From UHGV virus genome UHGV-0332176: a stretch of DNA of 64,000 nucleotides. One strand, written 5' to 3'. Under the pieces are notes generated by a model that worked only from the letters and a program-made list of their open reading frames with translations, was not told where the DNA came from and did not search any database. This document shows, piece by piece, positions 2,540-60,785 of the stretch. The DNA comes from a virus. Each line of letters starts with the position of its first letter. Position 1 is the first letter of the stretch. A program made the translations under genes and the position numbers.

Positions 2540-3946
2540 TTGAAAATGGTAGAATTTATTGCATATCACGGAAGTCAAACAAGTAAATTAAAAATGTATG
2601 AAAATTCAGCATTATATTTTACAACTAATTATAATCAAGCAAAATCTTATGCTAAAAGAGAATGGGATGAAGGACTAATTGAAGGACAAATTCCTGTTGT
2701 ATATAAAGCTAAATTAAATATTGAAAATCCTTATAAAATTAAAGATTATGATGAATTTATGATGGATTTTACTGATACAGGTATGTATGAATATTTTAGG
2801 GAAGAATTGATTGAAAAAGGATATGATTCAGCAATTTATGATGATAAAAAACATAAGTCACAATTAATAGTTATTTTTTATCCATCTCAATATAAAATTT
2901 TAGAAATGGAAAAATTACCACCATCTTTAGAATATTATTATAATGGTGAATTAGAAGACGATGAAGATATAAATGATTACTATTATGAAGATGATTATGA
3001 TGATGAGATTGATGAAGTTTTAAAAAGAGCTGGTATTCAAATTAATGAAGAAAAGATAGATGCTCCATTTCAAATTCCAGAAGTTATTAAAGACAATTTT
3101 AAAATTACTAATTCATTAAAAGATGCAAGTAAATGGAAAGCCAAAATTATTGAAAACAATAGTAATGGTGATGAATCAATTGGTATTGGTGATTGGAATA
3201 ATATTGGTTATGTAATGATTTCATTAAAAGATAATACAATTATTCCTATTGCTCGTGCAGATGAGCATAAACAAGGTTATGAACTTTTATATGAATTACA
3301 AGAGAAATATGGAATAAATGCATCAGATTATTATAGTGTTTGGTGCTTAAAAAATTCAGCAAATTATCCTTATAATAAAGAAGAAGGAGATTTATTGAAA
3401 AAAGCATTAATTAAATGTAAAAGTTATGGTATGGATTTATCAAAATCTTTGGTTTATATGAAATATATAGACCCACTTTATAGAGATAAATCTTATGATG
3501 ATTCTATGATTACAGCTGAAGATTTTATAAATGATAATTATCAAACAGTTGAAAAATTAAATACCTCAATTACAAATACTGGAAATAAATTAATTGATGC
3601 TTTTAAATTGTTAAGTGAAAGTTTTTCTAAAACAAATATTCGTGGCAAGTATTCAATTGTTAATATTAATAAAGCAATAAAGAATTTATATAATGTTGGA
3701 AGTAAAATAATTTTAAAAGATAATTTTAAACTGGTTAGTGATATGGATTTAGAACAAATGCAAGAATTTGTGCAACAGTATAAAGAAGGATATTATAATA
3801 ACAATCAATTGTCAAAAGTATTTTTTGGATTTATGGGATTTAGAAATAATTTTCATCAACGTTTAAGAAAAAACATTGATAATAAAATGCTTGAAAAACA
3901 ATTAGGGTCAGTTGAAAAAATTATAGAAATAATAGGAAGTATATAA
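2540..3946 (+). CDS. hypothetical 468-aa protein with an ART-fold-like N-terminal region (YHGS .. LYFTT)
   Basis: The N-terminal AYHGSQ..ALYFTTNYNQAKSYAK resembles the H-Y-[E] clade of ADP-ribosyltransferases (PARP/Arr-like HGS and YF[ST] motifs). It is paralogous to the N-terminal region of 23930..26890(-) and shares a C-terminal motif with 202..963. Confidence 0.6.
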   Translation: MKMVEFIAYHGSQTSKLKMYENSALYFTTNYNQAKSYAKREWDEGLIEGQIPVVYKAKLNIENPYKIKDYDEFMMDFTDTGMYEYFREELIEKGYDSAIYDDKKHKSQLIVIFYPSQYKILEMEKLPPSLEYYYNGELEDDEDINDYYYEDDYDDEIDEVLKRAGIQINEEKIDAPFQIPEVIKDNFKITNSLKDASKWKAKIIENNSNGDESIGIGDWNNIGYVMISLKDNTIIPIARADEHKQGYELLYELQEKYGINASDYYSVWCLKNSANYPYNKEEGDLLKKALIKCKSYGMDLSKSLVYMKYIDPLYRDKSYDDSMITAEDFINDNYQTVEKLNTSITNTGNKLIDAFKLLSESFSKTNIRGKYSIVNINKAIKNLYNVGSKIILKDNFKLVSDMDLEQMQEFVQQYKEGYYNNNQLSKVFFGFMGFRNNFHQRLRKNIDNKMLEKQLGSVEKIIEIIGSI

Positions 3947-4275
3947 TGATGAAAAAAATATTTTTATTATTAATAGCATTAATGTTATGTGCTTGTGCAA
4001 CTAAAACAGAAGTAATTTATCAACCTGTTTATCCAAATTTGCCACAACTTGAATCACCATTAATTTTGTCAAATATTCCTTGTAAATTTTCAATGCCAGA
4101 AAATCAGACTGAACAAATTTTTATTGGTTTTAATAAAGAAAATTTTAAATGTTATTTAAAAAATCAAGAAATAAACCGTGAACAAAAATTATTATTTGAA
4201 AAATTTGTCAATGAAGTTAATAAAGAACGAAAAATTTGGAATAATGCAAATAAAAAGGTTGACAATAAAAAATAA
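3946..4275 (+). CDS. lipoprotein
   Basis: The signal peptide MMKKIFLLLIALMLCACATK contains a lipobox-like LMLC sequence. Confidence 0.6.
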   Translation: MMKKIFLLLIALMLCACATKTEVIYQPVYPNLPQLESPLILSNIPCKFSMPENQTEQIFIGFNKENFKCYLKNQEINREQKLLFEKFVNEVNKERKIWNNANKKVDNKK

Positions 4276-4312
4276 ATGATATAGTATAACCTTAATTTAA
4301 GAGGTATTATTT

Positions 4313-4984
4313 ATGTCATTTTTTAATTTAACTAAAATAAAATCAATAACAAAATTAAATAAAATATATAGATTACTTAGTAAAACATATCATCCTGACA
4401 ATAAAGAAACAGGTGATAAAGATAAATTTATTGAGTTAAAAGAAGAATATGATAATGCAAAAAAAGTAATTTCTTCTTCACCAACACCAATTTTAATCAA
4501 TATTTCAACTTCAAAAGCATTCACAGGCTGTGAAGTTAATTATAATAATTGTGGCGATTCTGCCATAATTAAAATTCCTGCTAAATTTTATGATACTATG
4601 GATAGTGCCCTTATTTGTGATAATAATGGAAAATCATATATTGTATCCGTTAAGATAAAACCAGAAAAAGATGAAGCAATTACTTATTCACGAAATGGTG
4701 ATATAATTATTACCAAATATATTGAAATTACACCATTTGATTTAATTGGAAATAATGTTATATCATTTAATTTATTTAATGAAGAAAAACAAATTTTATT
4801 AACAAATAAATTAATAAAAAATATTCAACAACCACTAACATTATTAAATATCGGATACCCTTTGAAAAAAAATAGAAAAAAACGTGGAATTGTTAGAATA
4901 AGATTTAAAATTAAACCTTTATCTATTAAAGATGAAGATAAAAAATTATTAAAAGTTATTGAGGAAAAATATAAATGCCAGTAG
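4313..4984 (+). CDS. J-domain (DnaJ-like) co-chaperone
   Basis: YRLLSKTYHPDNKETGDKDKFIELKEEYDN matches the J-domain helix II/III with its invariant HPD tripeptide. Confidence 0.65.
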   Translation: MSFFNLTKIKSITKLNKIYRLLSKTYHPDNKETGDKDKFIELKEEYDNAKKVISSSPTPILINISTSKAFTGCEVNYNNCGDSAIIKIPAKFYDTMDSALICDNNGKSYIVSVKIKPEKDEAITYSRNGDIIITKYIEITPFDLIGNNVISFNLFNEEKQILLTNKLIKNIQQPLTLLNIGYPLKKNRKKRGIVRIRFKIKPLSIKDEDKKLLKVIEEKYKCQ

Positions 4985-7263
4985 ATGTATATGAAGAAAA
5001 ACTTTTAACCGAAATTGCTATTAAAGCATCGGATATTGCTAAAGAAACAAAATCAAAAATTTTATTACCAGAACATTTTTTATCAGTTATTTTACAAGAT
5101 AAATTTATAGTAAATCTTCTTACAAAAAAAGATACTGAAAAATATGAAAATGTTGTTAAAATGTTAAATGATTTTTGTATGAATTCAAATGATATTGACC
5201 GTATAACGGATGAAGATTCTTCTGATGAATTAATAATTAGTCCATTAATTAGTATATATATTTCATATGTAACTGTATGTAATAAAAGTTGTTTAGATAT
5301 TTTATCAAAAAATAAAGATTTTTATAAAATTAATTTATTGGGAGCTTTTTTATTTATGCATTCAACTTATGCTAATAAAGTTTTAAGAGATAATGGTTTT
5401 GATGTTAATTATATAGATGAAACAGTTGAAAATTTGGCATCAAATATTATTTTTGATGACCGTATTAAACCATTATTAGAAGAAAAAACTTCAAATACTA
5501 AAAATGATAATAATTTTGAAGAAGAATATTTAAATGCATTTACAATTAATTTAACAAATAAAGTTAAACAAAAAGATTGGATTCATATTGTTGGAAGAAA
5601 TGAAGAAATTGATTTAATTAAACAAATTTTATTAAGAAAAGATAAACCAAATGTTATTTTAGTTGGATATTCTGGTGTAGGTAAAACTAAAATTGTTGAA
5701 GGAATTGCGTTTGATTATATTAAAAAACATCCTGAAATTACATTTTTACAATTAGATACTCTTTCATTATTTTCTAATATCGGTATTAAAGGTGAATTAG
5801 AAAATAGAATAAAAAATATATATAATATTATTTCAAAAAAAGGTAATATTATTCTTTTTATTGATGAAATTCATTCTATTTGTAATTCATCTAACAATGC
5901 AAGTCAACCAGATGTTGCTAATTTATTAAAACCATTATTAACAGATGGTAAATTAAAAATTATTGGAGCAACAACTTTTGAAGAATATAGAAAATATATG
6001 GAAAATGATGAAGCATTTACAAGAAGATTTTATAAAATGATAATAAATGAACCTTCTATTGATGAAACGAGAAAGATTATTGCCCAAATTTCAACTAAAT
6101 ATGAAGAATTTTATCATATTAAATATTTACGGAGAGCAAGAGAAACTATTCTTGATTTAACAAAGAAATATATTTTTGATAAACATTTTCCAGAAAAAGC
6201 GATTGATGTATTAGATATGGCTGGTGCATATTGTAAATATATTGATAATTCTGTTTGCGATGTTTTAGAAATTCAGAAAACAATTTCAAGAATGTTAAAT
6301 ATTCCGTTATCTAATATTTCACAATCTGAAGAAGACATTTATCAACACCTTGAAGATAATCTTAAAAAAGAAATTATTGGTCAAGATGAAGCTGTTAACC
6401 AAGTAAGTGATGCCGTTATTATTGCAAGGTCTGGCTTACGAGAAGCAAATAAAACAGCAACTTCGCTAATGTTTAAAGGTTCTTCTGGTGTTGGTAAAAC
6501 AGAAATTTGTAAAGTGTTATCAAAAATTATGAATATTCCATTAGTTAGATTTGATATGTCGGAGTTTATGGAAGAACATAGTGTACCAAAATTAATTGGT
6601 GCTCCTCCTGGATATAAAGATGCGGGTGATGGAAAAGCAGGAAATGGTTTACTAATTAATGCAATTGATGAAAATCCATATTGTATTTTATTATTAGATG
6701 AAATAGAAAAAGCTCATCCAAAAATTCATAATTTATTATTACAAGTAATGGATAATGGTAAATTAACATCTTCAATGGGTAAAAGTGTTTCTTTTGAAAA
6801 TGTATTTTTAATAATGACTTCAAATGTTGGTTCATATAATAGTCATAAAATTGGAATAGGTTTTGGAAATTCAGAAACATCACCATCTGATAAAGATTTT
6901 GAAGATAGCTTTTTACCAGAATTTAGAAATCGTATAGATTCAGTCATTACATTTAACACATTGCCTGAAAGTGTAATGAAGAAAATCTGTAAAAAATTTC
7001 TTAATGAATTAAAAGATATGTTAAGAAATAAAAAGATTGATTTTAAATATAATGATGATATAATAAATTATATAGTTTCAAAAGTTGGTTCTTCTGAAAA
7101 TGGAGCAAGACCAATGAAACATATCATTACTAATGAAATCAAAAATAAAATAGCTAAAAATCTTGTATTTGGAAAATACAAAGAAAACAGTATTATTAAT
7201 TTAACAATGAATGAAAATATTATTAATTTTGAGGTTGAAGAAAAATGTTTGAAAGAAGATTAA
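4975..7263 (+). CDS. ClpA/ClpC-like Hsp100 AAA+ chaperone with two nucleotide-binding domains
   Basis: NBD1 shows GRNEEIDLIKQILLRKDKPNVILVGYSGVGKTKIVEGIAF and IGATTFEEYRKY..AFTRRF. NBD2 shows IIGQDEAVNQVSDAV, GSSGVGKTEICKVLS, RFDMSEFMEEHSV.KLIGAPPGY and LLLDEIEKAHP. At 762 aa it is about the length of ClpA. Confidence 0.8.
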   Translation: MPVDVYEEKLLTEIAIKASDIAKETKSKILLPEHFLSVILQDKFIVNLLTKKDTEKYENVVKMLNDFCMNSNDIDRITDEDSSDELIISPLISIYISYVTVCNKSCLDILSKNKDFYKINLLGAFLFMHSTYANKVLRDNGFDVNYIDETVENLASNIIFDDRIKPLLEEKTSNTKNDNNFEEEYLNAFTINLTNKVKQKDWIHIVGRNEEIDLIKQILLRKDKPNVILVGYSGVGKTKIVEGIAFDYIKKHPEITFLQLDTLSLFSNIGIKGELENRIKNIYNIISKKGNIILFIDEIHSICNSSNNASQPDVANLLKPLLTDGKLKIIGATTFEEYRKYMENDEAFTRRFYKMIINEPSIDETRKIIAQISTKYEEFYHIKYLRRARETILDLTKKYIFDKHFPEKAIDVLDMAGAYCKYIDNSVCDVLEIQKTISRMLNIPLSNISQSEEDIYQHLEDNLKKEIIGQDEAVNQVSDAVIIARSGLREANKTATSLMFKGSSGVGKTEICKVLSKIMNIPLVRFDMSEFMEEHSVPKLIGAPPGYKDAGDGKAGNGLLINAIDENPYCILLLDEIEKAHPKIHNLLLQVMDNGKLTSSMGKSVSFENVFLIMTSNVGSYNSHKIGIGFGNSETSPSDKDFEDSFLPEFRNRIDSVITFNTLPESVMKKICKKFLNELKDMLRNKKIDFKYNDDIINYIVSKVGSSENGARPMKHIITNEIKNKIAKNLVFGKYKENSIINLTMNENIINFEVEEKCLKED

Positions 7264-7769
7264 GTTATGAGGAAACTTTAAAACTCATTGAAAGAGGGGT
7301 GTTATGTGAGAGTAATGTGCATATTTGCATTGATAAATTATCTAAACACTCAACAGATGAATATTATATCAATAAAATTGAAATTGAAGAAAGTGCGACT
7401 AAAAAAGAAATTTTGTTTGATGTGATTAAATGTGATGAAGCCGTAACGAATAATAGAGAACCAGTATGGATTCCATATAATTGGATTAAAGAAATTAGTA
7501 ATATGCCGATTGAATGTTTATTAGAAGCATATGATATGGCTGAAAGTAATAGAATTGTTGAAGTTTATTTAGAAACTGATATTGAAAAAGATATTATTGG
7601 GAAAGAGGAAGCAGAATTAGAAGGTTATGAATTATATGATGGTTTAAAGTTTATTTTTTATAAAGATAAAAATGAAAAATACTGTGGTAAAACATTAACT
7701 GTTAAAGGAGTTGGAGAATCAATTAGATTTGTTGCGAATAGGGGTCGTCCAAGAAAAAAGAGAAATTAA
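7245..7769 (+). CDS. hypothetical protein
   Basis: 174-aa ORF overlapping the end of the ClpA-like gene. Confidence 0.5.
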   Translation: MFERRLSYEETLKLIERGVLCESNVHICIDKLSKHSTDEYYINKIEIEESATKKEILFDVIKCDEAVTNNREPVWIPYNWIKEISNMPIECLLEAYDMAESNRIVEVYLETDIEKDIIGKEEAELEGYELYDGLKFIFYKDKNEKYCGKTLTVKGVGESIRFVANRGRPRKKRN

Positions 7770-7829: not shown

Positions 7830-9143
7830 ATGAGTAATATTGTTTATGAATATCGTACAGGTGTGTGTGCAATTGATTCTCCCTGCAAAGACCAAACTGT
7901 ATCTGTAAAAAAGCAGGCGATTGATGCATCAAATAAAAAACCTAAAACCAAGAATCCAACTCCATTAATACCTGTTCAGCCAACAAAACCAAGATATATG
8001 GGGGCAAATCATAGTCATTATGAAAGTTCAGTTACTGATAAAAGAGTTTATTTAAATGTTTCTCCATTAGCTAAAAATAATGAAGAATATTTAGATAGAA
8101 TACGTTATGTTTTAGGAAGTGAGAAAAGAGCATATAATGGTTCTAACATATATGGATTTTTATATAAATGTTTGAAACCTACCGTTGGTATTGTATTTCC
8201 ATATACACCAAGAATTTCAATAAATCATCAAGTTAATTATGAAAGAACTGAAATTATACATTCTAATTTAGCGGTTAGCCATTATAAAAATACTCCACCA
8301 CCAACATATAGTATAGATGCGGTATTTACTGCGGATTCAAAAGAAATGGCTCGTCATATGTTATCTGCAATATGGTTTATGAGAGCTGTTACAAAATGTG
8401 ATTTTGGTGAAGCTGCTAATAGTAGAAATGGAAAAGTTGATGGAATGAGTACAGCAGGTATGCCACCACCAATTTTATATTTGAATGGATGGAATAATTT
8501 ATTAGATAATATACCTGTTGTTGTAAAATCTTTTAGTTATACTTTACCAGATGACCAAGATTATGTTGGTTTAGGTTTAAATTTAAATCTTGCATCTTTT
8601 GAAAATATTAATCAATTATATTCAGATGCAATTACTGGTGATTTTTATGATACTGGATATGGGGATAAAATTAATATGAATAATACTTCAGAAACCAGAT
8701 ATATTAATGGTATTCCAGTAAATACATCAAATATTACAACAAATCCAACAACGATTGGTGTTAATAAAAATGATAGATTTTATTTAAAAAATTGGCTTCC
8801 AGTTGAATTACAAATGCATATAGAATTAGAAGTTCAACCAAATTTACAAAAATATAAAAAACGTTTTGATTTAGATTATTATAAAATGGGTGTTATGTAT
8901 TTAGATAGTTATAAAGGTGGTCAAACAATATTAGTTCCTGACCAGAATGGTTGTTTCCTAAGAGTTGCAAAGGATGCAACAACAGGAGAAATATTAAGTT
9001 CTGAAACACGTAGAACTTCTTTACAGGCAATTCAAAAAGAAATGAATGAAAATCCAAATGTAACCGCATCAGATGAAGTTAAATCAGGTTTTTCAATAAT
9101 GCCAACAAAATATACATTTGATAGAGCTGGTTGGACTTGGTAA
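7830..9143 (+). CDS. virion structural protein (late; putative baseplate module)
   Basis: 437-aa ORF downstream of the TATAAATA motif and the first gene of a block of large, contiguous, overlapping ORFs. No specific motif recognised. Confidence 0.55.
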   Translation: MSNIVYEYRTGVCAIDSPCKDQTVSVKKQAIDASNKKPKTKNPTPLIPVQPTKPRYMGANHSHYESSVTDKRVYLNVSPLAKNNEEYLDRIRYVLGSEKRAYNGSNIYGFLYKCLKPTVGIVFPYTPRISINHQVNYERTEIIHSNLAVSHYKNTPPPTYSIDAVFTADSKEMARHMLSAIWFMRAVTKCDFGEAANSRNGKVDGMSTAGMPPPILYLNGWNNLLDNIPVVVKSFSYTLPDDQDYVGLGLNLNLASFENINQLYSDAITGDFYDTGYGDKINMNNTSETRYINGIPVNTSNITTNPTTIGVNKNDRFYLKNWLPVELQMHIELEVQPNLQKYKKRFDLDYYKMGVMYLDSYKGGQTILVPDQNGCFLRVAKDATTGEILSSETRRTSLQAIQKEMNENPNVTASDEVKSGFSIMPTKYTFDRAGWTW

Positions 9144-9447
9144 GGAATTTAAAATGGTAGAATTTAGTGAATATAGTTTATATACAAATACTCCTGTTAA
9201 TCAATTTTATCGTGGATATTATCAACCGATTGATATTCCAAAAGATTCAAGTGATTTATTTATATTAATTCCATCTGAATATCATCATAAACCAGGTAAA
9301 ATGGCTTATACAATGTACGGAACAGCAAGATTAAGTTGGATTTTTTCATACTTTAATAGAGAAATTATATCTGACCCATTATTTGATTTTGAAGAAGGTT
9401 TAATTATTCGTTGCCCAACAAAAGAACGTGTTATGTCTTATTTTTAA
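9118..9447 (+). CDS. hypothetical structural-module protein
   Basis: 109-aa ORF translationally coupled within the late block. Confidence 0.5.
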   Translation: MIELVGLGKEFKMVEFSEYSLYTNTPVNQFYRGYYQPIDIPKDSSDLFILIPSEYHHKPGKMAYTMYGTARLSWIFSYFNREIISDPLFDFEEGLIIRCPTKERVMSYF

Positions 9448-9458
9448 AGGTTAATTAA

Positions 9459-11606
9459 ATGGCATTTTATGATGAACAAGTAGAAAAAGAATTAAAACAA
9501 TGGAATTATCAGCCTAATTTGTTACAATTTTATGATAATGTAACATATAATATTCGTTGGTATATGATTCCACAAGATATACACGATTATATTGTTGAAC
9601 AAAATAAAAAAGGATTAAATTCTGTTTATGTTCCAGATAGTTCAAAAATTATCATTATGGAAACAGGAGTTAGTTCAAATTATTCTTTAAATAGCTTAAC
9701 AATGCGAAATGCATTTGGAGTTATTGGGTCAGATAATTCAATTAATATTAATATGGATATGTCTTTAATTGAAGTAAATGGTTGTTCATTATTTAATAAA
9801 ATTACTGCTATTTCAAAGTTATTAGGTTATGAAAATCCAATGCAACAACCTTTCTTTGTAGATATTTGGTTTTCAGGGTATGAACCACCAAAAAATACAC
9901 CAATAAATCCTATTGGTGGAATAATTACTTATAGCACAATTATTACATCTTGTAATTCAGATACTGTTGATTCTGGTACAAGCTGGCAAATTAAAATGGT
10001 TGGTTCTTCAATGGGAATTGTAACTAAAGATATTAGTTTATTAAATAATATTGCTCCAATTAAAGCAATTACTGTTGAAGATTTTAGAAAGAGTTTAGAA
10101 GAACAAATTAATTTACAATATTTTAATTTACATCCTGAATTAAGAAAATATTTTCCATCGGAAGATTTTGTAACAATTAAATTGTATTCTTCAGAAGAAT
10201 TTTTAAATGATACAACACAATATCAAGATAATCAAACTCATATTAATAATGAAAAAGATTTTAATTCAGTATATGGTTATGATTGGACTTTAAAAAATAC
10301 AAAAAATGGAACATTAGTTAATAATGGAGTAATGTATTCTACAACAAATGATGGAAAATATATTCCAATTGGTTCTGCTATTCCTCAAACAACTCCTGAA
10401 AAAGAAAGACAATACACACCTTATAATAATTTTAAAGAATGTATTTTTGATAAAGTTGGTGAAAATATTGATACTGCTAATAAAGGTCAATTAGTAATGA
10501 AAATGGATAATAACCAATTATTAGAAAATATTTTTCAAGAAGTTTGTTCATTATCTCCACAATTAAGAGATAGGGTTGCAAAAGTTATTTTTAATTCTAA
10601 ACCAATTGCTAATCGTGAAGGTCGTGAAATTTATAAATTAACAATGAATGTATTTTTTAAAAAAAATTATTGGTTAAAATGGTTCATTGAAACAAGTAAA
10701 CAATTTTCATATCAAAATAGTAATAATGCTAATGCTATGGCAATTGATGCATATAATAAAACTATACAACAAATGCAATTAGATTCTTTATCTGATATGA
10801 AAATAACTAATGGTTTAAAGAAAAGATATAAATTTTTATTTAATGGAGAAGATACAAGTGTATTAGAATTAAATACAAAAATTGATAAATTATGGTATTT
10901 AAATTCTTCACAAAATTACTTGGCAGATACAATTATTAATACACCAATTACTAATATTGCGTTAGATAATGTTCAACGAATTCAAGATTTAATTGATATT
11001 AAAAAAAATGAAAATGAAAAATTATCTGACCAAGAATCTTTTAAAAAAGTATTAGAAGAACATACTGCATATAAAAATTTAAAAAATATTCGTCAATTAG
11101 CAACAGATAAAAGATTATATGTTGATGATATTTACCATTGTTTAAGTGGTAAAGAAAAAATGAAATTATTAGGTTCTCGTAATGTAACAGTTATGAATGA
11201 CCCATTTGGACAAGCAACAACTGCTTCAAAAACTGGTTCAATTGATTATAATTGTGCAAAAGCAGGATTTGCTAATCTTTATAATACTGGTAATTTAATT
11301 AAATTAAAAATTAAAATTTTAGGAGACCCTTATTGGTTAGATTTATTTTCTGAAAAAAATATTAATGGTGATATAAAAACTATGATGAATTTATCTAATG
11401 CAAAATATTTTGTGTTTGATATGAAAACAGCTGTTGAACAAGATATGAAGGGAAATGGTTTATATGATTTAGAATCAGCCGTTGATATTTCAGGTATATA
11501 TCAAGTTTTATATGTAACAAGTTATTTTGAAAATGGTAAATTTACTCAACATATTGAAGGTTCAATACACGCATCATTTATGCATAGTAATTTTATGAAG
11601 GTTTAA
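9459..11606 (+). CDS. large virion structural protein (putative baseplate)
   Basis: 715-aa ORF in the late block. Confidence 0.55.
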   Translation: MAFYDEQVEKELKQWNYQPNLLQFYDNVTYNIRWYMIPQDIHDYIVEQNKKGLNSVYVPDSSKIIIMETGVSSNYSLNSLTMRNAFGVIGSDNSININMDMSLIEVNGCSLFNKITAISKLLGYENPMQQPFFVDIWFSGYEPPKNTPINPIGGIITYSTIITSCNSDTVDSGTSWQIKMVGSSMGIVTKDISLLNNIAPIKAITVEDFRKSLEEQINLQYFNLHPELRKYFPSEDFVTIKLYSSEEFLNDTTQYQDNQTHINNEKDFNSVYGYDWTLKNTKNGTLVNNGVMYSTTNDGKYIPIGSAIPQTTPEKERQYTPYNNFKECIFDKVGENIDTANKGQLVMKMDNNQLLENIFQEVCSLSPQLRDRVAKVIFNSKPIANREGREIYKLTMNVFFKKNYWLKWFIETSKQFSYQNSNNANAMAIDAYNKTIQQMQLDSLSDMKITNGLKKRYKFLFNGEDTSVLELNTKIDKLWYLNSSQNYLADTIINTPITNIALDNVQRIQDLIDIKKNENEKLSDQESFKKVLEEHTAYKNLKNIRQLATDKRLYVDDIYHCLSGKEKMKLLGSRNVTVMNDPFGQATTASKTGSIDYNCAKAGFANLYNTGNLIKLKIKILGDPYWLDLFSEKNINGDIKTMMNLSNAKYFVFDMKTAVEQDMKGNGLYDLESAVDISGIYQVLYVTSYFENGKFTQHIEGSIHASFMHSNFMKV

Positions 11607-11608
11607 TT

Positions 11609-13579
11609 ATGGCACGTTTAGATACACGTTTAACACAATCTGAAAAACAATCACGTGATAGAACATTTGATAAAAGTCGTATTTATATGGCAGAAGTGAT
11701 GGATACACGTTCTATTTTACGTGGTGGAGAAATTAAAGTTTGGATTTTAAGTTCAAATAATGATAAAGAAAATCCTGTTAATTGGGTAACAGCATATTAT
11801 GCATCATCAATTTATGGAACAACACCTGTTACACCAAATCAAACAAGTAATTATAAATCTGCTCCTATAAGTTTTGGTTCTTGGTTTCCAATGCCTTATA
11901 TTGGTAATTATGTATTCATTTTTTATCCTTGTATTTCGGGAGAAAATTCAAATCCATATTGGTTTTCTTGTCCTGTTAACCCAAATATGAATTTTATGTT
12001 GCCAGGTATTCCTGGTGCATATACATCAAATGAACACGAAACTTTATGTGAATTGAATATGAAATCATCAAATCCTGAAATTAATTCTGATGCATTAGCA
12101 TATCGTAAAGAACAATATCAAGCACCTTATAAACCAATGATAGATGCATTACAACGTCAAGGATTAGATAAAGATAGATTAAGAGGTATTTCAACTGCTG
12201 GTTCAAAACGAGAATCACCAAGTATGTCTTGGGGATATGTTTCACCAACAGGTCATACTATGGTTATTGATGATGGTTGGGTTGAAGATGATAATAAATT
12301 AAATTGGTTAACAGAAACGACCGATAAAAATATTTTAGGTTTGAAAAATGAAAATGGATTAGACCCTTCTCATATTGAAAATTCTAATAGATATAATTCT
12401 GGATTTAGACTTAGAACACGAAATGGTACACAAATTTTAATTTTAGATACTGGTAATATCTATATGATTAATCGTGATGGTACTGCTTGGTTAGAATTAT
12501 CTGATGATGGTTATATTGATTGTTTTTCTGAAAAAGGTATATCTGCTAATACAAATGGGGATATAAATTTTCATTCCGATGGTAGAATTAAAATGGAAGC
12601 GAAACAAGGTTTTACTTTTAAAACTGATGGAGATATATCAATTGAATCAGCAGGAAATATGAATATTTCATCACCTCGTATTGATACTGATAGTATAATT
12701 TCAGCTCCTGAAATAAATGCTAATATTGGTAATATCAAATCATTTATTTCTGCATTAGCTCAAATAAATGGTGTATTTTCGGGAACTTTACAAGGTACAG
12801 CTTTTTATGCAACAAATGCTGGTATTACTCCTGCTCCACAGCCACAGCCATTAACTCCTGAACCAAATGTTCCATATCCTTTAATTGAAGAAGCACAAGA
12901 ACAGATTGGTAAAATTGGTGAAACAATAGAAACAATTGTTTCAAGAATTCCAACTGCTGAACCTTATGGTGGTCACGATAGAAATGATACTATACCAGTA
13001 TTAGATACTTCTTTTAAAGTTCAAACAACAGAATATTATAATTTGGACACACCATTAATTACAAATCAAATTGAAACAACACCATTACCAACTGCATCAA
13101 CAAATAATATACCAATTCCATCAATGCAGTTATCAGAACATTTTACTTTACAAGATTTATGTTCTTCACAAACTGCAACAAAATATGGAATTAATAATAC
13201 TCCATCAAGTGATATTATTGAAAAATTAAAATTATTAGCTAATAATGTTTTAGAACCTATTTATAAACATTATGGAAAAGTAACAGTTAATAGTGGTTAT
13301 AGAGGACCAGCATTGAATAGTGTTGTTGGTGGAGCTTTAACCTCTCAACATTGTAAAGGTGAAGCTGCTGATATTGAAATACTTGGTGTAAATAATTATG
13401 ATTTAGCAGTATGGATAAGAGATAATATTGATTTTGACCAATTAATTCTTGAATTTGCAACTAATTTATCAAGTGACCCGAATAGTGGTTGGGTACACGT
13501 TAGTTATAAATCATCAAATAATAGACATCAATTATTAACAATTAATAATTATGGTACAAAATCTGGATTAATTAAATAA
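11609..13579 (+). CDS. baseplate hub/spike-like protein with a C-terminal peptidase M15 (cell-wall hydrolase) domain
   Basis: The C-terminus NSGYRGPALNSVVGGALTSQHCKGEAADIEI..WVHVSY matches the zinc D-Ala-D-Ala carboxypeptidase/M15 signature (SxHxxGxAxD). The N-terminal part is OB-fold/gpV-like (weak). The position is consistent with a T4 gp5-like tail lysin. Confidence 0.6.
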   Translation: MARLDTRLTQSEKQSRDRTFDKSRIYMAEVMDTRSILRGGEIKVWILSSNNDKENPVNWVTAYYASSIYGTTPVTPNQTSNYKSAPISFGSWFPMPYIGNYVFIFYPCISGENSNPYWFSCPVNPNMNFMLPGIPGAYTSNEHETLCELNMKSSNPEINSDALAYRKEQYQAPYKPMIDALQRQGLDKDRLRGISTAGSKRESPSMSWGYVSPTGHTMVIDDGWVEDDNKLNWLTETTDKNILGLKNENGLDPSHIENSNRYNSGFRLRTRNGTQILILDTGNIYMINRDGTAWLELSDDGYIDCFSEKGISANTNGDINFHSDGRIKMEAKQGFTFKTDGDISIESAGNMNISSPRIDTDSIISAPEINANIGNIKSFISALAQINGVFSGTLQGTAFYATNAGITPAPQPQPLTPEPNVPYPLIEEAQEQIGKIGETIETIVSRIPTAEPYGGHDRNDTIPVLDTSFKVQTTEYYNLDTPLITNQIETTPLPTASTNNIPIPSMQLSEHFTLQDLCSSQTATKYGINNTPSSDIIEKLKLLANNVLEPIYKHYGKVTVNSGYRGPALNSVVGGALTSQHCKGEAADIEILGVNNYDLAVWIRDNIDFDQLILEFATNLSSDPNSGWVHVSYKSSNNRHQLLTINNYGTKSGLIK

Positions 13580-55382: not shown

Positions 55383-55469
55383 GGGCAGGCTGCGAAGTTG
55401 GAGAGTCGCCTTTGACTGTAAATCAAATCCCTTCGGGGTGAGTGTGTTCGAATCACACCCTGCCCACCA
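55383..55469 (+). tRNA. tRNA-Tyr (anticodon GTA), type II with a long variable arm
   Basis: Acceptor gggcagg/cctgccc, D arm gcga..tcgc, anticodon stem tttga/tcaaa with loop ctGTAaa, variable hairpin, T arm gtgtg ttcgaat cacac, ends ACCA. Confidence 0.8.
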
Positions 55470-55602
55470 TTTAAAATATATTATTTAATTAGTTAATTTG
55501 ATGAAATATATATTTAGTTAATATATAAAATAATCTATGAAAGAAGTGAAAATTCTTTCATATTATTTAACTAATAAACTTTAACTAATTAAATAATATA
55601 TT

Positions 55603-55679
55603 GGACATATAGCTCAGTCCAGTAGAGCACCAGACTGAAAATCTGGGTGTCGGTGGAGCGAAGCCACCTGTGTCCACCA
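55603..55679 (+). tRNA. tRNA-Phe (GAA)
   Basis: Acceptor ggacata/tgtgtcc (one G-U pair), anticodon stem ccaga/tctgg with loop ctGAAaa. The T loop is unusual (agcgaag). Ends CCA. Confidence 0.65.
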
Positions 55680-55820
55680 ATTTTAAAAATATGGAACTCA
55701 TAAAAGTAATATTATTAGTATGCTATTAGCGATATAGACGAAAGTGAAAATAATATGAAATGAACGGAGTTTAAATTCCATAGACTATATTCGAAAAGAT
55801 AGGTATAGTCATTTATAAAT

Positions 55821-55897
55821 GGGCCAGTAGTTCAGCTGGGAGAACGCCTGCTTTGCACGCAGGATGTCGTGGGTTCAAGCCCCACCTGTGTCCACCA
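55821..55897 (+). tRNA. tRNA-Ala (TGC), possibly defective (acceptor stem mismatched)
   Basis: The body matches tRNA-Ala (gttcagctgggagaac, cctgc tttgcac gcagg, gtggg ttcaagc cccac). The 3' strand ctgtgtcc does not pair with the 5' strand gggccag (ctggccc would be expected). The last 21 nt are identical to the 3' end of the tRNA-Phe gene. Confidence 0.45.
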
Positions 55898-55904
55898 ATT
55901 TTAT

Positions 55905-55980
55905 TCCTCGTTAGCTCAATGGTTAGAGCAATCGGCTGTTAACCGATAGGTTTGGGGTTCGAGTCCCTAACGGGGAGCCA
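55905..55980 (+). tRNA. tRNA-Asn (GTT)
   Basis: Acceptor tcctcgt/acgggga, D arm gctc aatggtta gagc, anticodon stem atcgg/ccgat with loop ctGTTaa, T arm tgggg ttcgagt cccta, ends GCCA. Confidence 0.8.
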
Positions 55981-56301
55981 CTTTTTAATAAAAGTTTTGT
56001 ATGAAAACTAGTGAGTAATACAAAAAGTTTAACCCAACTGTACTTCAACAGGGTTCTTACAGAAGAAATAATCTGTCGTAGGATAGAAAATGTCTATGTT
56101 ATGGAAGTGTACACCAAAGTTTTGGCGTTTGAGTGGTAGTTACCAAATAAAACTATAAACTACCATATTTACAGTTTTTAGCTTAACATTATGTTAAGTA
56201 TTACAGAAAAAGTCTTTTGGGTCTCTACCAAAAGCGTTGAACTGGACGGCTATGGGCAGATGGTTCTTATGTAGAATACGATAAATTCTACAATTTTATA
56301 T

Positions 56302-56380
56302 CGGGTAGTCGCCTAATCTGGTATGGCACTTGCTTTGGGAGCAAGAAAAATTGGCGGTTCAAATCCGTCCTACCCGACCA
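56302..56380 (+). tRNA. tRNA-Pro (TGG)
   Basis: Acceptor cgggtag/ctacccg, anticodon stem cttgc/gcaag with loop ttTGGga, T arm ggcgg ttcaaat ccgtc, ends ACCA. Confidence 0.75.
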
Positions 56381-56429
56381 TATATTTAATAAATACTTGT
56401 ATAAATAACAAGTTAAGGATTATTAAGTC

Positions 56430-57011
56430 GTGATTAATAGATTTGAAAAGATAGAAAATGAAAAATTTATAGAAATATTTAATACTTCTGAAAGTAAAGG
56501 TGAAATTTGTCGTAAATTAAATATGCATAATAATGGTAAATCTATGAAATATATTAATGCAATGATTAAAGAACTTGGTTTGAATATAAATATTTTTAAA
56601 GAAAATCATTTCAATAAATATCATATAAAAAAGATTTGCCCTGTATGTGGTAAAGAATTTATTACAACAACAACGGAAAAAGGTAAGAATAAGGTATGTT
56701 GCTCATATTCGTGTGCTAATACTTATTTTCGTAGTGGTGAAAATAATGGAATGTATAAAAATTCTAATCTTTCAGGAAGAAATTCTTATTCAACTATTTG
56801 TTTTAGACATCATCCTCATAAGTGTTGTATATGTGGCGAAGAAAATATAGTTGCTGTTCATCATTATGATGGTAATCATAATAATAATGATATAAGTAAT
56901 TTAATTCCTTTATGTCCAACACATCATTGTTATATACATTCACGATTCAAAAATAAAATACAAGATAAAGTTGATGAATATAGAAATAATTTTATAAAAT
57001 CAAATAGTTAA
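56430..57011 (+). CDS. HNH homing endonuclease with an N-terminal zinc-finger DNA-binding module (GTG start)
   Basis: CPVCGKEF..CCSYSCANTY (zinc finger, homologous to the N-terminus of 59708) and CCICGEENIVAVHHYDGNHNNNDISNLIPLCPTHHCYIH (HNH motif). It lies inside the tRNA cluster. Confidence 0.65.
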   Translation: MINRFEKIENEKFIEIFNTSESKGEICRKLNMHNNGKSMKYINAMIKELGLNINIFKENHFNKYHIKKICPVCGKEFITTTTEKGKNKVCCSYSCANTYFRSGENNGMYKNSNLSGRNSYSTICFRHHPHKCCICGEENIVAVHHYDGNHNNNDISNLIPLCPTHHCYIHSRFKNKIQDKVDEYRNNFIKSNS

Positions 57012-57285
57012 TAATTTTTCTAAATGGTGCTGAATTACCACAAGTACTTATTTCAGTTAAATGTAGTTGCAAAAAATATGGTCGCTCCATAAGAACTCAA
57101 GCCATTTAAACTTTGGGTTAATGCATACCAATAGTCCAAAGCATTCGAAGTCAGCCGCTTCGTAAAATAGGAGTATAGTTTTTTGAATATTTTGACTAGA
57201 CTATAAATATTCTCCATCTATGGAAGAAATAGTCGTGGATATTGACTAACCCGAAGTATTACGAGAAGATACTTCAAATTTTAAT

Positions 57286-57361
57286 GGTTCGGTGACAGAA
57301 CGATTAATGTACTCGCCTGCAAAGCGATGTTTAGTGGGTTTGACTCCCACCCGAATCTCCA
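57286..57361 (+). tRNA. possible tRNA-Cys (GCA) with a non-canonical D and T loop
   Basis: Acceptor ggttcgg/ccgaatc, anticodon loop ctGCAaa, T arm gtggg tttgact cccac, ends TCCA. It lacks the G18G19 and T54-psi55-C56 consensus, so it may be a pseudo-tRNA. Confidence 0.3.
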
Positions 57362-57531
57362 ATTTATTTTTTAAGAATGGTGAGAAATTGATTTACATAG
57401 ACTGGAAATCCGTGTGTAGAAAGTTCGATTCTTTCCCCATCGACCATTTAACGGTGGGTAGCTCATTGGTAGAGCAACGTTAAATGATAATCAATTGTTA
57501 TGTTCCTTCTTAATTTTTTATAAAAAAGTTC

Positions 57532-57560
57532 TTGACATTAAAAAATTATGTGTTATATTA
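57532..57560 (+). promoter_or_regulatory. early promoter (aaaaaGTTCTTGACA family) driving 57606..57839
   Basis: aaaaagttcTTGACAttaaaaaattatgtgtTATATT. Confidence 0.55.
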
Positions 57561-57605
57561 CCATTATCAAATGATGATAACATTTTTTAATGAAAGAAAA
57601 ATAAA

Positions 57606-57839
57606 ATGGCAAATACAAATTCAAATTTAGAATTAGGTAAAATTGAAAACAAATGTGGATTTCATATTCATATGGTTCTTTTTGGTGTTAAAAGTGATAT
57701 TATTCGTTATGATATTACTCTTGAAGAAGCTAAAGATTTAATTAATAAAGCTAAAAAAGAATGCGAAAGAGCAGGAATGGAATTCCAATTAATTGAATTT
57801 GAGGAAGTCAAAGTTTCCGTAAAGAAACTTAAATTTTAA
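57606..57839 (+). CDS. hypothetical small protein (promoter-ORF-terminator cassette inside the tRNA cluster)
   Basis: 77 aa with its own promoter and a downstream hairpin (57854-57892). Confidence 0.5.
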   Translation: MANTNSNLELGKIENKCGFHIHMVLFGVKSDIIRYDITLEEAKDLINKAKKECERAGMEFQLIEFEEVKVSVKKLKF

Positions 57840-57853
57840 AAGTTTTGGTAGTT

Positions 57854-57892
57854 GGAAGTTAAGCTATTAGGGCAGGAGCAACTTAACTTCCA
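57854..57892 (+). terminator. hairpin (putative terminator)
   Basis: ggaagttaagc..gcaacttaacttcc. Confidence 0.45.
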
Positions 57893-58432
57893 TCTATTGA
57901 TACGAATCCTGATTTATTAATTACCTTCACGTGGTTCAGGATGTAAGTAAGAATTGCAGTTTATAACATAAGACAATTTCTGAAACTAAAAATTAATTTT
58001 TAAAATGATTTAATTGAATTATAGTAAATTAAATAAGTTGATTAAATACGTGAGCAATATAGAATCAACAATTGGTATAAAAGCAGATTATAACCGAACT
58101 ACTTAGGCTTACGGTAGACGTAGGGTATAACCACGATTAGGGCAATTTATTTTGAATCTTCATTATGAGTCCTCAACAAATATAATCGTTTTTAAAAAAT
58201 TCTGCATATTTAAATTTTTAAAATTATCTTTATGATGTCTTTCGTTCCTTTCATTGTTGTTACATAAAGATAATTTTGGAGAGATTAATCTCTCCACTTA
58301 TAGAAACATTAAAGATGTCAGTTCGAATCTGACCTGCCTGAATAAAAACTTTTAATATTAAATTGATATTAAAAGTCGGGTGGTAGTAATAACGGTAGAA
58401 TAGTAATGTTGCTATAAATGGAGAATTTTTAT

Positions 58433-58507
58433 GGGTGTATAAGTCAACGGTTAGACTAACAGCCTTTTAAGCTGTAGATGAGGGTTCGATTCCCTCTGCA
58501 CCTACCA
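58433..58507 (+). tRNA. tRNA-Lys (TTT)
   Basis: Acceptor gggtgta/tgcacct, D arm agtc aacggtta gact, anticodon stem acagc/gctgt with loop ctTTTaa, T arm gaggg ttcgatt ccctc, ends ACCA. Confidence 0.8.
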
Positions 58508-58535
58508 ATTTATATTATTGTAGTTAAATACTTTA

Positions 58536-58607
58536 ATGTATCGTCTAATGGCAAGACACCCTCTGTTCGTGTTGAGGGAAATATAGGTTCGAATCCTAAT
58601 AATCATT
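58536..58607 (+). ncRNA. tRNA-like element with a canonical T arm (ggttcgaatcc) but a 10-nt loop on the ccctc/gaggg stem and no CCA
   Basis: gtctaatggcaagac (D-arm-like), then ccctc tgttcgtgtt gaggg, then aataggttcgaatcctaat. It cannot be folded as a standard tRNA by eye. Confidence 0.2.
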
Positions 58608-58873
58608 AAAAATATATAAGAAAAATAACAAGTTTCTTTTTTGATAATTTGGTATTGGAAATTAATGCCCAATTATGACAAGTATTTAACAAAATTTCCT
58701 GACTCTAATCAAAGAATTAGTGATTGATAATTTAATAATTATCTGTGTGCGTGATATGACACCCTTTATCAACGCTTGCATACAAGACTGCATAAATCAA
58801 GATGGGTAGGTGGCTGTTTATCCGTTTCACCTTTCAAATGATAAACAAAACGTTAAAACGGATTGCATTTTAT

Positions 58874-58948
58874 TCTGGTGTAGCTCAATGGTGGAGCAAT
58901 CGGCTGTTAACCGAAAGGTTGTAGGTTCAAGTCCTATCGCCAGAGCCA
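58874..58948 (+). tRNA. tRNA-Asn (GTT), second copy
   Basis: Acceptor tctggtg/cgccaga, anticodon loop ctGTTaa, T arm gtagg ttcaagt cctat, ends GCCA. Confidence 0.8.
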
Positions 58949-59179
58949 ATTATAATAGTAATCATAATATTTAATTTAATAGGATTTTGGTAGCTAGATA
59001 ACCCAAGATATGAAAATTAATATTGATGATATGGTTTAAGATTTTGACCATTAACCGTAATGAAAATCCAGTTTATTTATTGTACTCGGTTAACAATAAC
59101 GTAGAATTGGTAATTCTTAGAAAGGTACGTTAAGCCTTTTATTAAATAAATATCTTATATAATTTATGAGGTATTAAAG

Positions 59180-59602
59180 ATGAGATTAATAGACATATTA
59201 GCATTATTTAAAGCTATTAAAAATACTGCTAAAAAATATCATTGGAAAACAACAGGTTCAACTTTTATGTCAGACCATTTATTATTTGATAGAATTTATG
59301 ATGATATTGATGATGACCAAGTTGATACAATTGTTGAACAATATTATATGGGTGTTGGAAGAAAAGATATTAATGATTTAGATAATTTAATTACATTATC
59401 TGCACAATATGAAGGTAAATCATTTTCTGCAACTTCTGAAAGTATAATTTTAATGTATCAAGAATTAGCAAGAATGATGAATACATTTTTAATTAATATT
59501 GAAAAATTAAATTTATTAAGAGGTATTAATTCTGAATTAGATAATCTTTCTTCAACTATTACACAATTATATGGTTTAGTAACTGCAAGATTATGTCAAT
59601 AA
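59180..59602 (+). CDS. Dps/ferritin-like protein
   Basis: ALFKAIKNTAKKYHWKTTGSTFMSDHLLFDRIYDDIDDDQVDTIVEQY matches the Dps signature (L..L....Y.KTHN.HWNV.G..F..LH..FEE.Y......D.iAERi). Confidence 0.4.
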   Translation: MRLIDILALFKAIKNTAKKYHWKTTGSTFMSDHLLFDRIYDDIDDDQVDTIVEQYYMGVGRKDINDLDNLITLSAQYEGKSFSATSESIILMYQELARMMNTFLINIEKLNLLRGINSELDNLSSTITQLYGLVTARLCQ

Positions 59603-59604
59603 TT

Positions 59605-59682
59605 GGGGCTGTGGGCGAATTGGTAGAGCCACCACCCTTTCAAGGTGGATTCTTGCCCGTTCAAGTCGGGTCAGTCCTACCA
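59605..59682 (+). tRNA. tRNA-Glu (TTC)
   Basis: Acceptor ggggctg/cagtcct (two G-U pairs), anticodon stem ccacc/ggtgg with loop ctTTCaa, T arm gcccg ttcaagt cgggt, ends ACCA. Confidence 0.65.
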
Positions 59683-59707
59683 TTTTTTATTAAGAAAGAA
59701 ATAAAAA

Positions 59708-60423
59708 ATGTATATATGTAAGAATTGTGGTAAAGAATTTTTAGAAAAATATAGCAAATGGTCAAATGGAGATTTTTGTTGTAAAGAATGTGCTAGAAGT
59801 TATTCAACAAAAAATAAAAGACAAGAAATTAATGAAAAAGTTTCTAAAACATTAAAAGGAAGAATTATTGGAAAAAATTCTTTATTAAAAAATATTAATA
59901 TTAAGCAACAATATGAAAAAGCTCCTTTATTATGTCCAATATGTAACAATATAATTTTATATGAAAGATATATTAAACATAGAAAAACTTGTAGTACAGA
60001 ATGTGGTAAAGAATTAGCAAAAAGAAATCATTCTCATCAAGGTGGTGGTTATAGAAAAAGAGCAGGAAGAAGTAAGCACGGATATTACAAAGGAATTTAT
60101 TGTGATTCAACTTATGAGTTAGCTTATTTAATTTATTGTTTAGACCATAATATTAATATTAAAAGATGTGAAGAAACATTTGAATATGAATATAATGGAA
60201 AAAACATAAATATCATCCTGATTTTATTGTTAATGATGAAATTATAGAGATAAAAGGTTATCATAATAATTTGGTCGATATTAAAATGAAATCTATTATA
60301 AATAGAAAATATAAAATATTATATATTAATGATTTATTTAAATCATTTGAATATGTTAGTAAAGCATATAATAAAAAATTTCATAATAAATGGAATAATT
60401 TTTATGAATTATATGATGAATAA
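59708..60423 (+). pseudogene. PD-(D/E)xK-type homing endonuclease with an N-terminal zinc-finger module, interrupted by a -1 frameshift at A_AAA_AAC (60199-60205)
   Basis: Frame 0 (59708..60247) carries CKNCGKEF..CCKECARSY and CPICNN..CSTECGKEL zinc ribbons plus GIYCDSTYELAYL. The -1 frame is open from 60196 and reads KKHKYHPDFIVNDEIIEIKGYHNN.. (PD...EIK nuclease motif) through to 60423. Confidence 0.45.
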
Positions 60424-60424
60424 T

Positions 60425-60504
60425 GGTGTGTGGGAGAGCTGGGTGTTCTCGCCTGCCTGTCACGCAGGAGATTCAGAAGGGTTCGAACCCCTTACACACC
60501 GCCA
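60425..60504 (+). tRNA. tRNA-Asp (GTC)
   Basis: Acceptor ggtgtgt/acacacc, D arm gaga gctgggtgt tctc, anticodon stem cctgc/gcagg with loop ctGTCac, T arm aaggg ttcgaac ccctt, ends GCCA. The variable region is slightly long. Confidence 0.6.
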
Positions 60505-60709: not shown

Positions 60710-60785
60710 GGGTGTGTAGCTTAAATGGTAGAGAAACTGACTCTTAATCAGTATGATGAGGGTTCGAAGCCCTCTGCACCCACCA
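60710..60785 (+). tRNA. tRNA-Lys (CTT)
   Basis: Acceptor gggtgtg/tgcaccc, anticodon stem actga/tcagt with loop ctCTTaa, T arm gaggg ttcgaag ccctc, ends ACCA. Confidence 0.75.

Follow-up and report, generated by a model that had tools for sequence, protein, structure and literature searches.

Why would a phage place a gene for a DnaJ-type co-chaperone directly in front of, and overlapping with, a gene for a Clp-type unfoldase, and what could such a pair do during infection? This question is raised by two plus-strand genes in a stretch of 64,000 nucleotides (nt) of the virus genome UHGV-0332176, referred to as the window in the following: the J gene (4313..4984), which encodes a DnaJ-like co-chaperone of 223 amino acids (aa), and the clp gene (4975..7263), which encodes a ClpA-like Hsp100 unfoldase of 762 aa. 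The window stems from a jumbo phage of the gut, as the same block is present on metagenomic contigs of 212-289 kb. In jumbo phages hundreds of proteins are made fast, and many of these phages carry chaperone or protease parts of their own. We analysed by computation how the two proteins are built from domains, which motifs are conserved, how the genes overlap and how far the pair persists in relatives. Our data reveal that genes of the DnaJ and ClpA types are tightly linked, in many cases with a peptide deformylase gene (def) as a further part of the unit, throughout a large phage lineage most of which is uncultured. With moderate confidence, we take this unit to be a conserved jumbo-phage proteostasis operon, which would supply co-expressed folding and degradation arms.

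Judged by its profile matches, the larger protein is a ClpA-like ATPase of a divergent phage lineage. The ClpA model TIGR02639 covers residues 11-743 in a single stretch with 622.3 bits, which does not reach the equivalog cut-off of 993.15 bits, and the match to phrog_4871 has an E-value of 3e-198. Pfam assigns AAA, AAA_lid_9, AAA_2 and ClpB_D2-small. E. coli ClpA (PDB 1ksf) aligns without a break (residues 180-745 to 163-735, E 7e-132) and ClpB models match the ATPase only in two pieces; from the continuous ClpA alignment, with its one stretch in the ClpA model, and the divided ClpB match it follows that the protein has no M-domain. A ClpA-type N-domain spans residues ~1-150 (4975..5424). It is recognized by the family profile, which matches the ClpA N-domain structures 1lzw, 1k6k and 1mbu (E 2e-12; 97.2% in hhalign), and the single sequence stays below the threshold of Pfam Clp_N (18.3 vs 20.7). 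Both AAA+ modules (D1 and D2) have intact Walker A, Walker B, Arg-finger and sensor-2 motifs. On the plus strand, these include the Walker A GYSGVGKT (5665..5688), the Walker B ILFIDEIH (5851-5874) and RRF (6022-6030) in D1, and the Walker A GSSGVGKT (6478..6501), the Walker B LLLDEIEKAH (6688-6717), the Arg-finger region PEFRNRID (6916-6939) and the sensor-2 motif GARPM (7102-7116) in D2.

Besides, the ATPase carries an IGF tripeptide (I628 G629 F630; 6856..6864, plus strand) that HMMER aligns to the IGL of E. coli ClpA and that represents the predicted ClpP-docking loop. In an alignment of 93 sequences, which comprises all related loci and an E. coli ClpA fragment and includes one sequence truncated at the tripeptide, IGF occurs 80 times, LGF six times, IGL three times, and IGV, VGF and IGY once each. 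Each of the 91 other loci with sequence at the tripeptide keeps the pattern [ILV]-G-[FLYV], and G629 is invariant. This conservation argues for an unfoldase of the ClpP-coupled type, predicted to dock to the ClpP of the host or to a distant phage ClpP. The label ClpA-like had already been given in an earlier interpretation of the letters and translations, the sequence-only reading, and the domain search for an M-domain and a docking loop bears it out: a ClpA-type N-domain and the IGF are present and an M-domain is not. A ClpB-like disaggregase was ruled out, as the M-domain is absent and the IGF loop is conserved, and the dedicated disaggregase suggested in the same reading runs counter to these two features.

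The upstream protein is, according to its sequence and its AlphaFold2 (AF2) model, a compact class-B Hsp40 with a J-domain and two client-binding C-terminal domains (CTDs). The J-domain (residues ~2-55; 4316..4477, plus strand) was delimited by the AF2 secondary structure and by alignments to the J-domains of DnaJ, DNAJB1 and Sis1. In the model, which has a predicted local distance difference test score (pLDDT) of 78, helix I is short (a remnant of three residues) and is followed by helix II (12-26), the HPD loop and helix III (36-55), so that the core hairpin of helix II, HPD and helix III is present. The Hsp70-activating tripeptide HPD (H27 P28 D29; 4391..4399, plus strand) lies between the predicted helices II and III and is invariant in all five aligned members of the family. 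The beta-rich client-binding region of the DnaJ_C type (residues ~58-200; 4484..4912, plus strand) comprises CTD I and CTD II, and the AF2 model ends with a C-terminal helix (residues 207-221; 4931..4975, plus strand), possibly a dimerization helix as in DnaJ or CbpA. A zinc finger is absent: the translation contains no CxxCxGxG repeats and the Pfam family DnaJ_CXXCXGXG is not matched.

This assignment draws mainly on the family and the fold. PF00226 (DnaJ) is matched by five of five family members (best E 3.7e-6) and PF01556 (DnaJ_C) by three of five (best E 2e-5), and J-domains head the list of PDB matches for the family profile (best E 1.1e-6). In Foldseek, the best match of the model is DnaJ of T. 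thermophilus (4j80, 8e-11), and further matches include the CTDs of DNAJB1, Sis1 and Brucella DnaJ (template modelling (TM) score up to 0.73) and the CbpA-like 3lz8; among viral models, many DnaJ-class proteins from uncultured tailed phages and giant viruses were retrieved. The metagenomic family is small: clustering at 90% gives six clusters, and at 50% some twelve clusters match with E < 1e-30. The identical J-protein sequence is present on 493 contigs. A tblastn search of the J-protein against the GenBank phage collection gave no match.

The two genes overlap by 10 nt (4975-4984). The ATG of clp (4975-4977) is located inside the 3' end of the J open reading frame (ORF), whose TAG stop follows at 4982-4984, and a ribosome-binding site for clp, GAGGA (4961..4965, plus strand), is found 9 nt before this ATG and still within the 3' end of the J ORF. 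The position of GAGGA inside the J ORF together with the overlap suggests that translation of the two genes is coupled. Hence, the description of an HPD-bearing J-domain co-chaperone that overlaps a two-ring Clp ATPase of 762 aa, as proposed in the sequence-only reading, was confirmed with regard to coordinates, 10-nt overlap and ribosome-binding site. The J gene itself is preceded by a Shine-Dalgarno-like AGAGG (4300..4304, plus strand), read from the sequence 8 nt before its ATG. A scan for promoters and terminators found no terminators and yielded promoter-like sites at chance level only (71 found vs 69.3 expected), which includes the arrangement TTGACA-17-TAGTAT at 4259-4287 as not above chance; the pair is probably part of one longer transcript. 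The guanine-cytosine (GC) contents of the two genes are 21.9% and 23.7%, compared with ~25% in the window. Since both genes share the composition of the window, neither is a recent import, and a recent horizontal acquisition of the pair was ruled out. A J-Clp fusion produced by programmed frameshifting was ruled out as well: the overlap has no canonical slippery heptamer, and the overlaps of relatives vary (-1 to -17, or positive gaps), which also disfavours such a fusion.

How common is this arrangement? Within this jumbo-phage lineage, the pairing is the norm. Among the 80 ClpA-like loci in IMG/VR most similar to the window ClpA, a same-strand DnaJ-type gene is located upstream in 69, or in 69 of ~72 scorable loci. 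The 11 exceptions consist of eight loci with less than 400 nt of upstream sequence (three of these end in a def fragment), two with an E. coli-like clpS upstream and one true negative (L036). Starting from the other gene, a ClpA-like gene is found downstream in 79 of the 80 IMG/VR DnaJ-type loci closest to gp293, the DnaJ of the cultured relative Atu_ph07. As the samples are made up of nearest relatives, which probably go back to one ancestral arrangement, the counts show conservation of the linkage and not independent origins. In contrast, among the 80 bacterial ClpA loci (L257-L336) most similar to the phage protein, clpS stands immediately upstream of clpA on the same strand in 62 and a DnaJ-type gene in none. 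Most of these bacterial loci belong to Alpha- and Gammaproteobacteria and are uninformative on an AT-rich host. The juxtaposition had been called unusual in the sequence-only reading, which is correct in comparison to bacteria (DnaJ upstream in 0/80) and incorrect within the phage lineage, where it is the rule, as in Atu_ph07 and Phosso.

The pair recurs in every lineage of the window clade (four), down to 41% identity of the J-protein, and the genes of these pairs overlap or abut (-1 to -17 nt). Elsewhere, the intergenic gap is either ~0-85 nt or ~450-660 nt, and the longer gap holds the peptide deformylase gene. Of the 69 positive IMG/VR loci, 40 carry this def gene between the two others (for example L021:1851-2360 and L043:9454-9966), and so does Phosso (L008:4181-4699); it is not at this position in the window clade or in Atu_ph07. 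The ancestral unit may have been DnaJ-Def-ClpA, that is, three functions acting on newly made proteins. Flanking genes vary between sub-clades and the pair remains together; the adjacency survives at 33-42% identity of ClpA and ~20-25% identity of the J-protein. Other jumbo phages, namely Rak2-like phages, XaC1, SCTP-2 and a Vibrio phage, have ClpA without an adjacent DnaJ.

For the proteostasis operon that we favour, the division of labour could be as follows. The minimal class-B Hsp40 of 223 aa would bind non-native clients via its beta-rich CTDs, and its HPD-bearing J-domain would activate the ATPase of host DnaK, whereupon clients would be folded or held by the Hsp70 system of the host. 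The 762-aa protein would assemble into a double-ring hexamer of the ClpA type and unfold proteins, which its IGF loops would pass on to ClpP, either that of the host or one encoded by the phage at another site of its ~285-kb genome. Co-transcription and coupled translation would yield both arms during the burst of phage protein synthesis. The adjacency to baseplate and virion genes together with the frequent presence of def points to newly made phage proteins, probably virion proteins, as clients, and a def gene between the two others fits the theme of new-protein processing. Given this position, quality control of virion proteins would be its most likely task.

Several observations weigh against this reading. 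On the side of the J-protein, the single sequence reaches 22.5 bits with Pfam DnaJ (PF00226; E 1.2e-4), short of the gathering score of 27.8 bits, and its match spans profile positions 8-50 of 63, helix IV of the J fold is absent from the AF2 model, and there is no glycine/phenylalanine (G/F)-rich linker, as helix III, which ends at residue 55, directly meets the first beta-strand at residue 58. The PF00226 matches of the relatives P0004 and P0005 are weak too (E at most 1e-3, precomputed). The sub-threshold score of the J-domain is overturned by the family-level and structural evidence. Failure in J-domain hidden Markov models had been named in the sequence-only reading as a finding that would speak against a J-domain; such a failure is restricted to the single sequence under the Pfam cut-off, while family profile, fold and orthology support the J-domain.

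A further objection concerns the partners on which both arms would depend, as a ClpP or DnaK partner of this phage was not located in the ~80 of ~285 kb inspected. Using E. coli queries, tblastn found no ClpP, ClpS, DnaK or GrpE in the 64-kb window, and queries from Atu_ph07 found no ClpP or ClpS there either, in line with the earlier statement that the window holds no ClpP. ClpP and ClpS were likewise not found in the ~10 kb upstream or the ~6 kb downstream of the window, where the called genes have no CLP_protease match. Of the ordinary protease that had been considered as a counter-scenario, with a docking loop in the ATPase and clpP just outside the window, the loop is thus present and clpP was not found over these distances. 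In ~170 related loci, no ClpP was detected within 4-10 kb of the pair. Atu_ph07 encodes ClpP and ClpS, both far from the pair (Attai et al. 2018, PMC6102473): a match to PF00574 (4e-80) identifies gp676 as a true ClpP, and ClpS is gp708. An IMG/VR contig of 480 kb that contains the module also carries a ClpP of the Atu_ph07 type at a distance of ~370 kb, and it is the only contig common to the best 80 ClpA-bearing and the best 80 ClpP-bearing IMG/VR contigs. Based on these comparisons, the ClpP partner would be either a distant phage ClpP or the ClpP of the host. Another point is the linkage itself, which at 96-99% is tighter than two independent arms strictly require.

The remaining objections come from changes in the ATPase that are specific to the window clade and were read in the window, L001, L003, L005 and L012, with IGF loop and ATPase motifs retained. 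The D1 pore-1 loop is G-I-K (5782..5790, plus strand) in place of the K-[Y/F]-R of ClpA and other phage ClpAs, and the relatives in the clade have M-L-K, F-V-K or M-F-K. The clade thus has Ile, Leu or Val in place of the D1 tyrosine, and L012 has Phe. In E. coli ClpA, the exchange Y259A abolished or hindered degradation of every tested substrate (Zuromski 2021, PMC8666677), and in view of this phenotype the enzyme of the window clade may not act like canonical ClpA. The D2 pore-1 loop, GYKD (6610..6621, plus strand; clade form GYK[D/G]), retains the tyrosine of the canonical GYVG; other phage ClpAs retain both K[YF]R and GYVG. In addition, E23, E28, T81 and R86 are the residues of the E. coli ClpA N-domain that contact ClpS (PMC12493166). 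Aquatic phage ClpAs retain all four, and only the equivalent of E28 is retained in the window ClpA, where E23 is replaced by Lys (SKILLPEH at 5053-5076; clade form SK[I/Y]LLxEH) and T81 and R86 are not conserved, in a region that is aligned at low identity and less certain. Substrate selection in the window clade is probably non-canonical, as far as these residues can tell. One member of the clade goes further: the ClpA-like protein of L001 (L001:10642-12879) has a degenerate D1 ring, with FIDDIH as Walker B and the arginines of RRF replaced (LKF), and an intact D2, and its D1 may bind ATP without hydrolysis.

The loss of the ClpS contacts and of the D1 tyrosine, through which ClpA engages substrates directly, would fit an ATPase that depends on a delivery factor, and the DnaJ-type gene holds the position of bacterial clpS (69 of ~72 phage loci vs 62 of 80 bacterial loci) in a linkage that outlives the flanking synteny and goes as far as overlapping genes in the window clade. 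These features would suit a direct hand-off, in which the DnaJ-type protein is a dedicated ClpA adaptor in the role of ClpS, with or without host DnaK, and delivers clients bound to its CTDs to the N-domain or the pore of ClpA for unfolding and degradation. Nevertheless, we consider such a hand-off rather doubtful. Physical contact between the J-protein and ClpA is hypothetical, the invariant HPD argues that interaction with Hsp70 is still under selection, and no DnaJ stands next to ClpA in the jumbo phages XaC1 and SCTP-2, in Rak2-like phages or in Vibrio jumbo phages. Moreover, the ClpS-contact residues are still present in the aquatic relatives and in Atu_ph07, which even encodes ClpS, and all of them have DnaJ upstream; therefore DnaJ does not simply replace ClpS. 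Even less credence is given to the idea that the DnaJ-type protein took over both the genomic and the functional place of ClpS and couples Hsp70-style capture of clients directly to ClpA(P), with the window clade as the extreme form. If true, this would be a J-protein-to-Clp triage pathway that is undescribed in cells. A ClpP-independent bichaperone disaggregase, in which the ATPase would cooperate with the J-protein and host DnaK like ClpB/Hsp104 and clear aggregates or rearrange assemblies without proteolysis, could account for the lack of clpP in ~80 kb around the pair. A class-B DnaJ is joined to an Hsp100 in the dnaK-grpE-dnaJ-dafA-clpB operon of T. thermophilus, and ClpA can reportedly act as a chaperone without ClpP, as Wickner et al. 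are said to have found in 1994 for the activation of P1 RepA. However, the M-domain, which couples ClpB/Hsp104 to Hsp70, is absent, relatives encode ClpP, and all phage homologues that we examined keep the docking tripeptide, a conservation that would make little sense if ClpP were not bound, so that this reading appears very improbable.

The same biochemistry could also be directed at host clients in a host takeover or counter-defence, where the J-protein would redirect or titrate DnaK and the ATPase would steer ClpP onto host regulators or defence proteins. A precedent is the stabilization of sigma-32 by Rki (PMC3486835), phage ClpP and ClpS have been discussed as a means to target host proteins (Iyer et al., PMC7824862), DnaJ-dependent defence sensing is cited in PMC12619734, and a weakly ART-PolyVal-like gene is located upstream of the pair in the window. 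Still, we regard a takeover function as unlikely: the pair is situated in a neighbourhood of virion genes and not in an early or host-takeover block, a complete CTD for client binding, of the kind found in housekeeping class-B Hsp40s, suggests a broad range of clients, and the common association with def points to the processing of new proteins. It is also conceivable that the genes are linked without any shared function, in which case the adjacency would reflect only common descent and compact packing. All positive loci may indeed stem from one ancestral arrangement, and phage genes often overlap anyway, as does the next ORF with clp by 19 nt. We assign the lowest probability of all to this explanation, since the two genes stay adjacent even where the flanks on both sides are replaced and identity has dropped to 33-42% for ClpA and ~20-25% for the J-protein, and the sole common insertion between the two genes is def, another protein-maturation gene. 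The proteostasis operon hence remains our preferred reading, and it raises the question whether Hsp70-type client capture is joined to Clp-type degradation physically or via co-expression only. With Atu_ph07, a cultured relative that grows on A. tumefaciens C58, this question is testable.

Turning to the neighbourhood, a small gene for a lipoprotein of 109 aa (3946..4275, plus strand) precedes the J gene. The protein is Rz1/o-spanin-like, with a lipobox-like LCAC and weak matches to Rz-like spanin PHROGs. In Atu_ph07 (gp294) and Phosso, DnaJ is likewise preceded directly by a homologous lipoprotein gene, which in each case matches LysC weakly, and in most aquatic relatives the gene is not at this position; by synteny, it is a neighbour of the pair and a candidate member of the module. 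Further upstream, an ORF of 468 aa with a TTG start (2540-3946, plus strand) weakly matches, in its N-terminal part, the ADP-ribosyltransferase domain known from polyvalent proteins (ART-PolyVal; 29.7 bits, with the gathering score at 31.2). On the other side, the ORF that overlaps the 3' end of clp by 19 nt (7245..7769, plus strand) encodes 174 aa with an AT-hook-like C-terminus (RGRPRKKRN). Pfam and PHROG searches assigned no family to it, it is conserved in the window clade only, and it could be the third co-translated member of the block. Most aquatic relatives (L020, L044, L073 and ~50 other IMG/VR loci) have a ~230-aa gene directly downstream of ClpA, which has no Pfam family and is unrelated to the 174-aa ORF of the window.

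Just downstream of clp, a plus-strand block (7830-13579) encodes a virion protein, a baseplate wedge protein, another virion protein and an M15-peptidase/baseplate-hub protein. This block is syntenic with gp696-gp699 of Atu_ph07 (L096:30928-37302), where it is far from the DnaJ-ClpA pair, and supports a distant kinship of the AT-rich window phage with Atu_ph07-like jumbo phages. At the other end of the window, 19 tRNA genes (55383-63069) include three for tRNA-Met(cat), two for tRNA-Ile (gat, tat), two for tRNA-Asn and two for tRNA-Lys. A gene for an nSTAND/NACHT-like NTPase straddles the 3' end of the window (L094:13388-14542, from ~63095 of the window onward), and ~2.5 kb further, beyond this end and beside the tRNA array, a TROVE (Ro60-like) domain protein is encoded (L094:16748-18037).

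How do these findings relate to what is known? Phage ClpA as such is not new, since it forms phrog_4871 and occurs in 193 GenBank phage records, and public pipelines already annotate identical sequences, with "DnaJ-class molecular chaperone" or "chaperone protein" for the J-protein and "ClpA" for the ATPase. For DnaJ of jumbo phages, recruitment of host Hsp70 has been predicted (PMC7824862), and for phage ClpA a role as translocase or in assembly (PMC6102473); the proposed operon is in keeping with these predictions. DnaJ is also known in moraphages, in which ClpA is near-core (PMC12619734). The ClpA gp292 and the DnaJ gp293 of Atu_ph07 are named in one paragraph without a comment on their adjacency (Attai et al. 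2018, PMC6102473). In the literature, we found no description of DnaJ-(Def)-ClpA as a conserved phage module, nor of any characterized phage ClpA. The window pair is therefore an expected member of a known module whose components are known and for whose linkage we found no description in the literature.

Among cellular systems, ClpB/Hsp104 with the DnaK-DnaJ system shares with the window pair a two-ring Hsp100 that is tied genetically to a J-protein, but the window ATPase differs in having no M-domain and in possessing a ClpP-docking loop. E. coli ClpA and the window ATPase are alike in N-domain, D1, D2, D2-small, the lack of an M-domain and the position of the docking tripeptide, and they differ in the D1 loop (KYR to GIK), the D2 loop (GYVG to GYKD) and the residues E23, T81 and R86, which are not conserved. 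The gene upstream of it is clpS in the clpS-clpA operon of E. coli, whereas it encodes a DnaJ-type co-chaperone in the window. This co-chaperone resembles class-B Hsp40s (T. thermophilus DnaJ, CbpA, Sis1 and DNAJB1) in its J-domain with HPD, two beta-sandwich CTDs, C-terminal helix and lack of a zinc finger; with 223 aa it is shorter than these proteins (~280-340 aa), and identity in structural alignments is 11-18%. For phages, a J-domain protein that acts on host DnaK is described in Rki (gene 057w) of the T4-like phage RB43, an ORFan product that stabilizes sigma-32 and was the first functional phage-encoded J-domain protein (PMC3486835). The likeness to Rki is drawn from this description, and unlike Rki as described, the window protein binds clients, by prediction, through a canonical DnaJ_C region, and its gene is paired with that of a Clp ATPase.

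The closest counterpart of the window pair is the gp293 (DnaJ)-gp292 (ClpA) pair of Agrobacterium phage Atu_ph07, which has the same order on the same strand and, as in the window, an Rz1-like lipoprotein gene upstream. Sinorhizobium phage Phosso, also with an Rz1-like lipoprotein gene upstream, shows the order DnaJ-like, peptide deformylase and Clp. The window ClpA is 35% identical to gp292 over 99% of its length, including the N-domain, and the IGF loop is conserved. In hhalign, the alignment of the J-protein family of the window with gp293 takes in both domains (95.5%, E 1.5e-8). At the same time, gp293 is a full class-B DnaJ of 268 aa, with a J-domain (79 bits), a linker of ~45 aa and a DnaJ_C region (127 bits); the linker of ~45 residues appears as a gap in the hhalign alignment to the window family, whose member in the window has 223 aa. 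The genes of Atu_ph07 are separated by a short gap, whereas those of the window overlap, and ClpA of Atu_ph07 keeps K-F-R, GYVG and E23/E28, in which the window ClpA differs. Compared with this relative, the window clade is thus, as judged by sequences and the structural model, a variation on the shared module, in which the J-protein is reduced, the two genes overlap, the D1 pore loop is changed and ClpS contacts of ClpA are gone.

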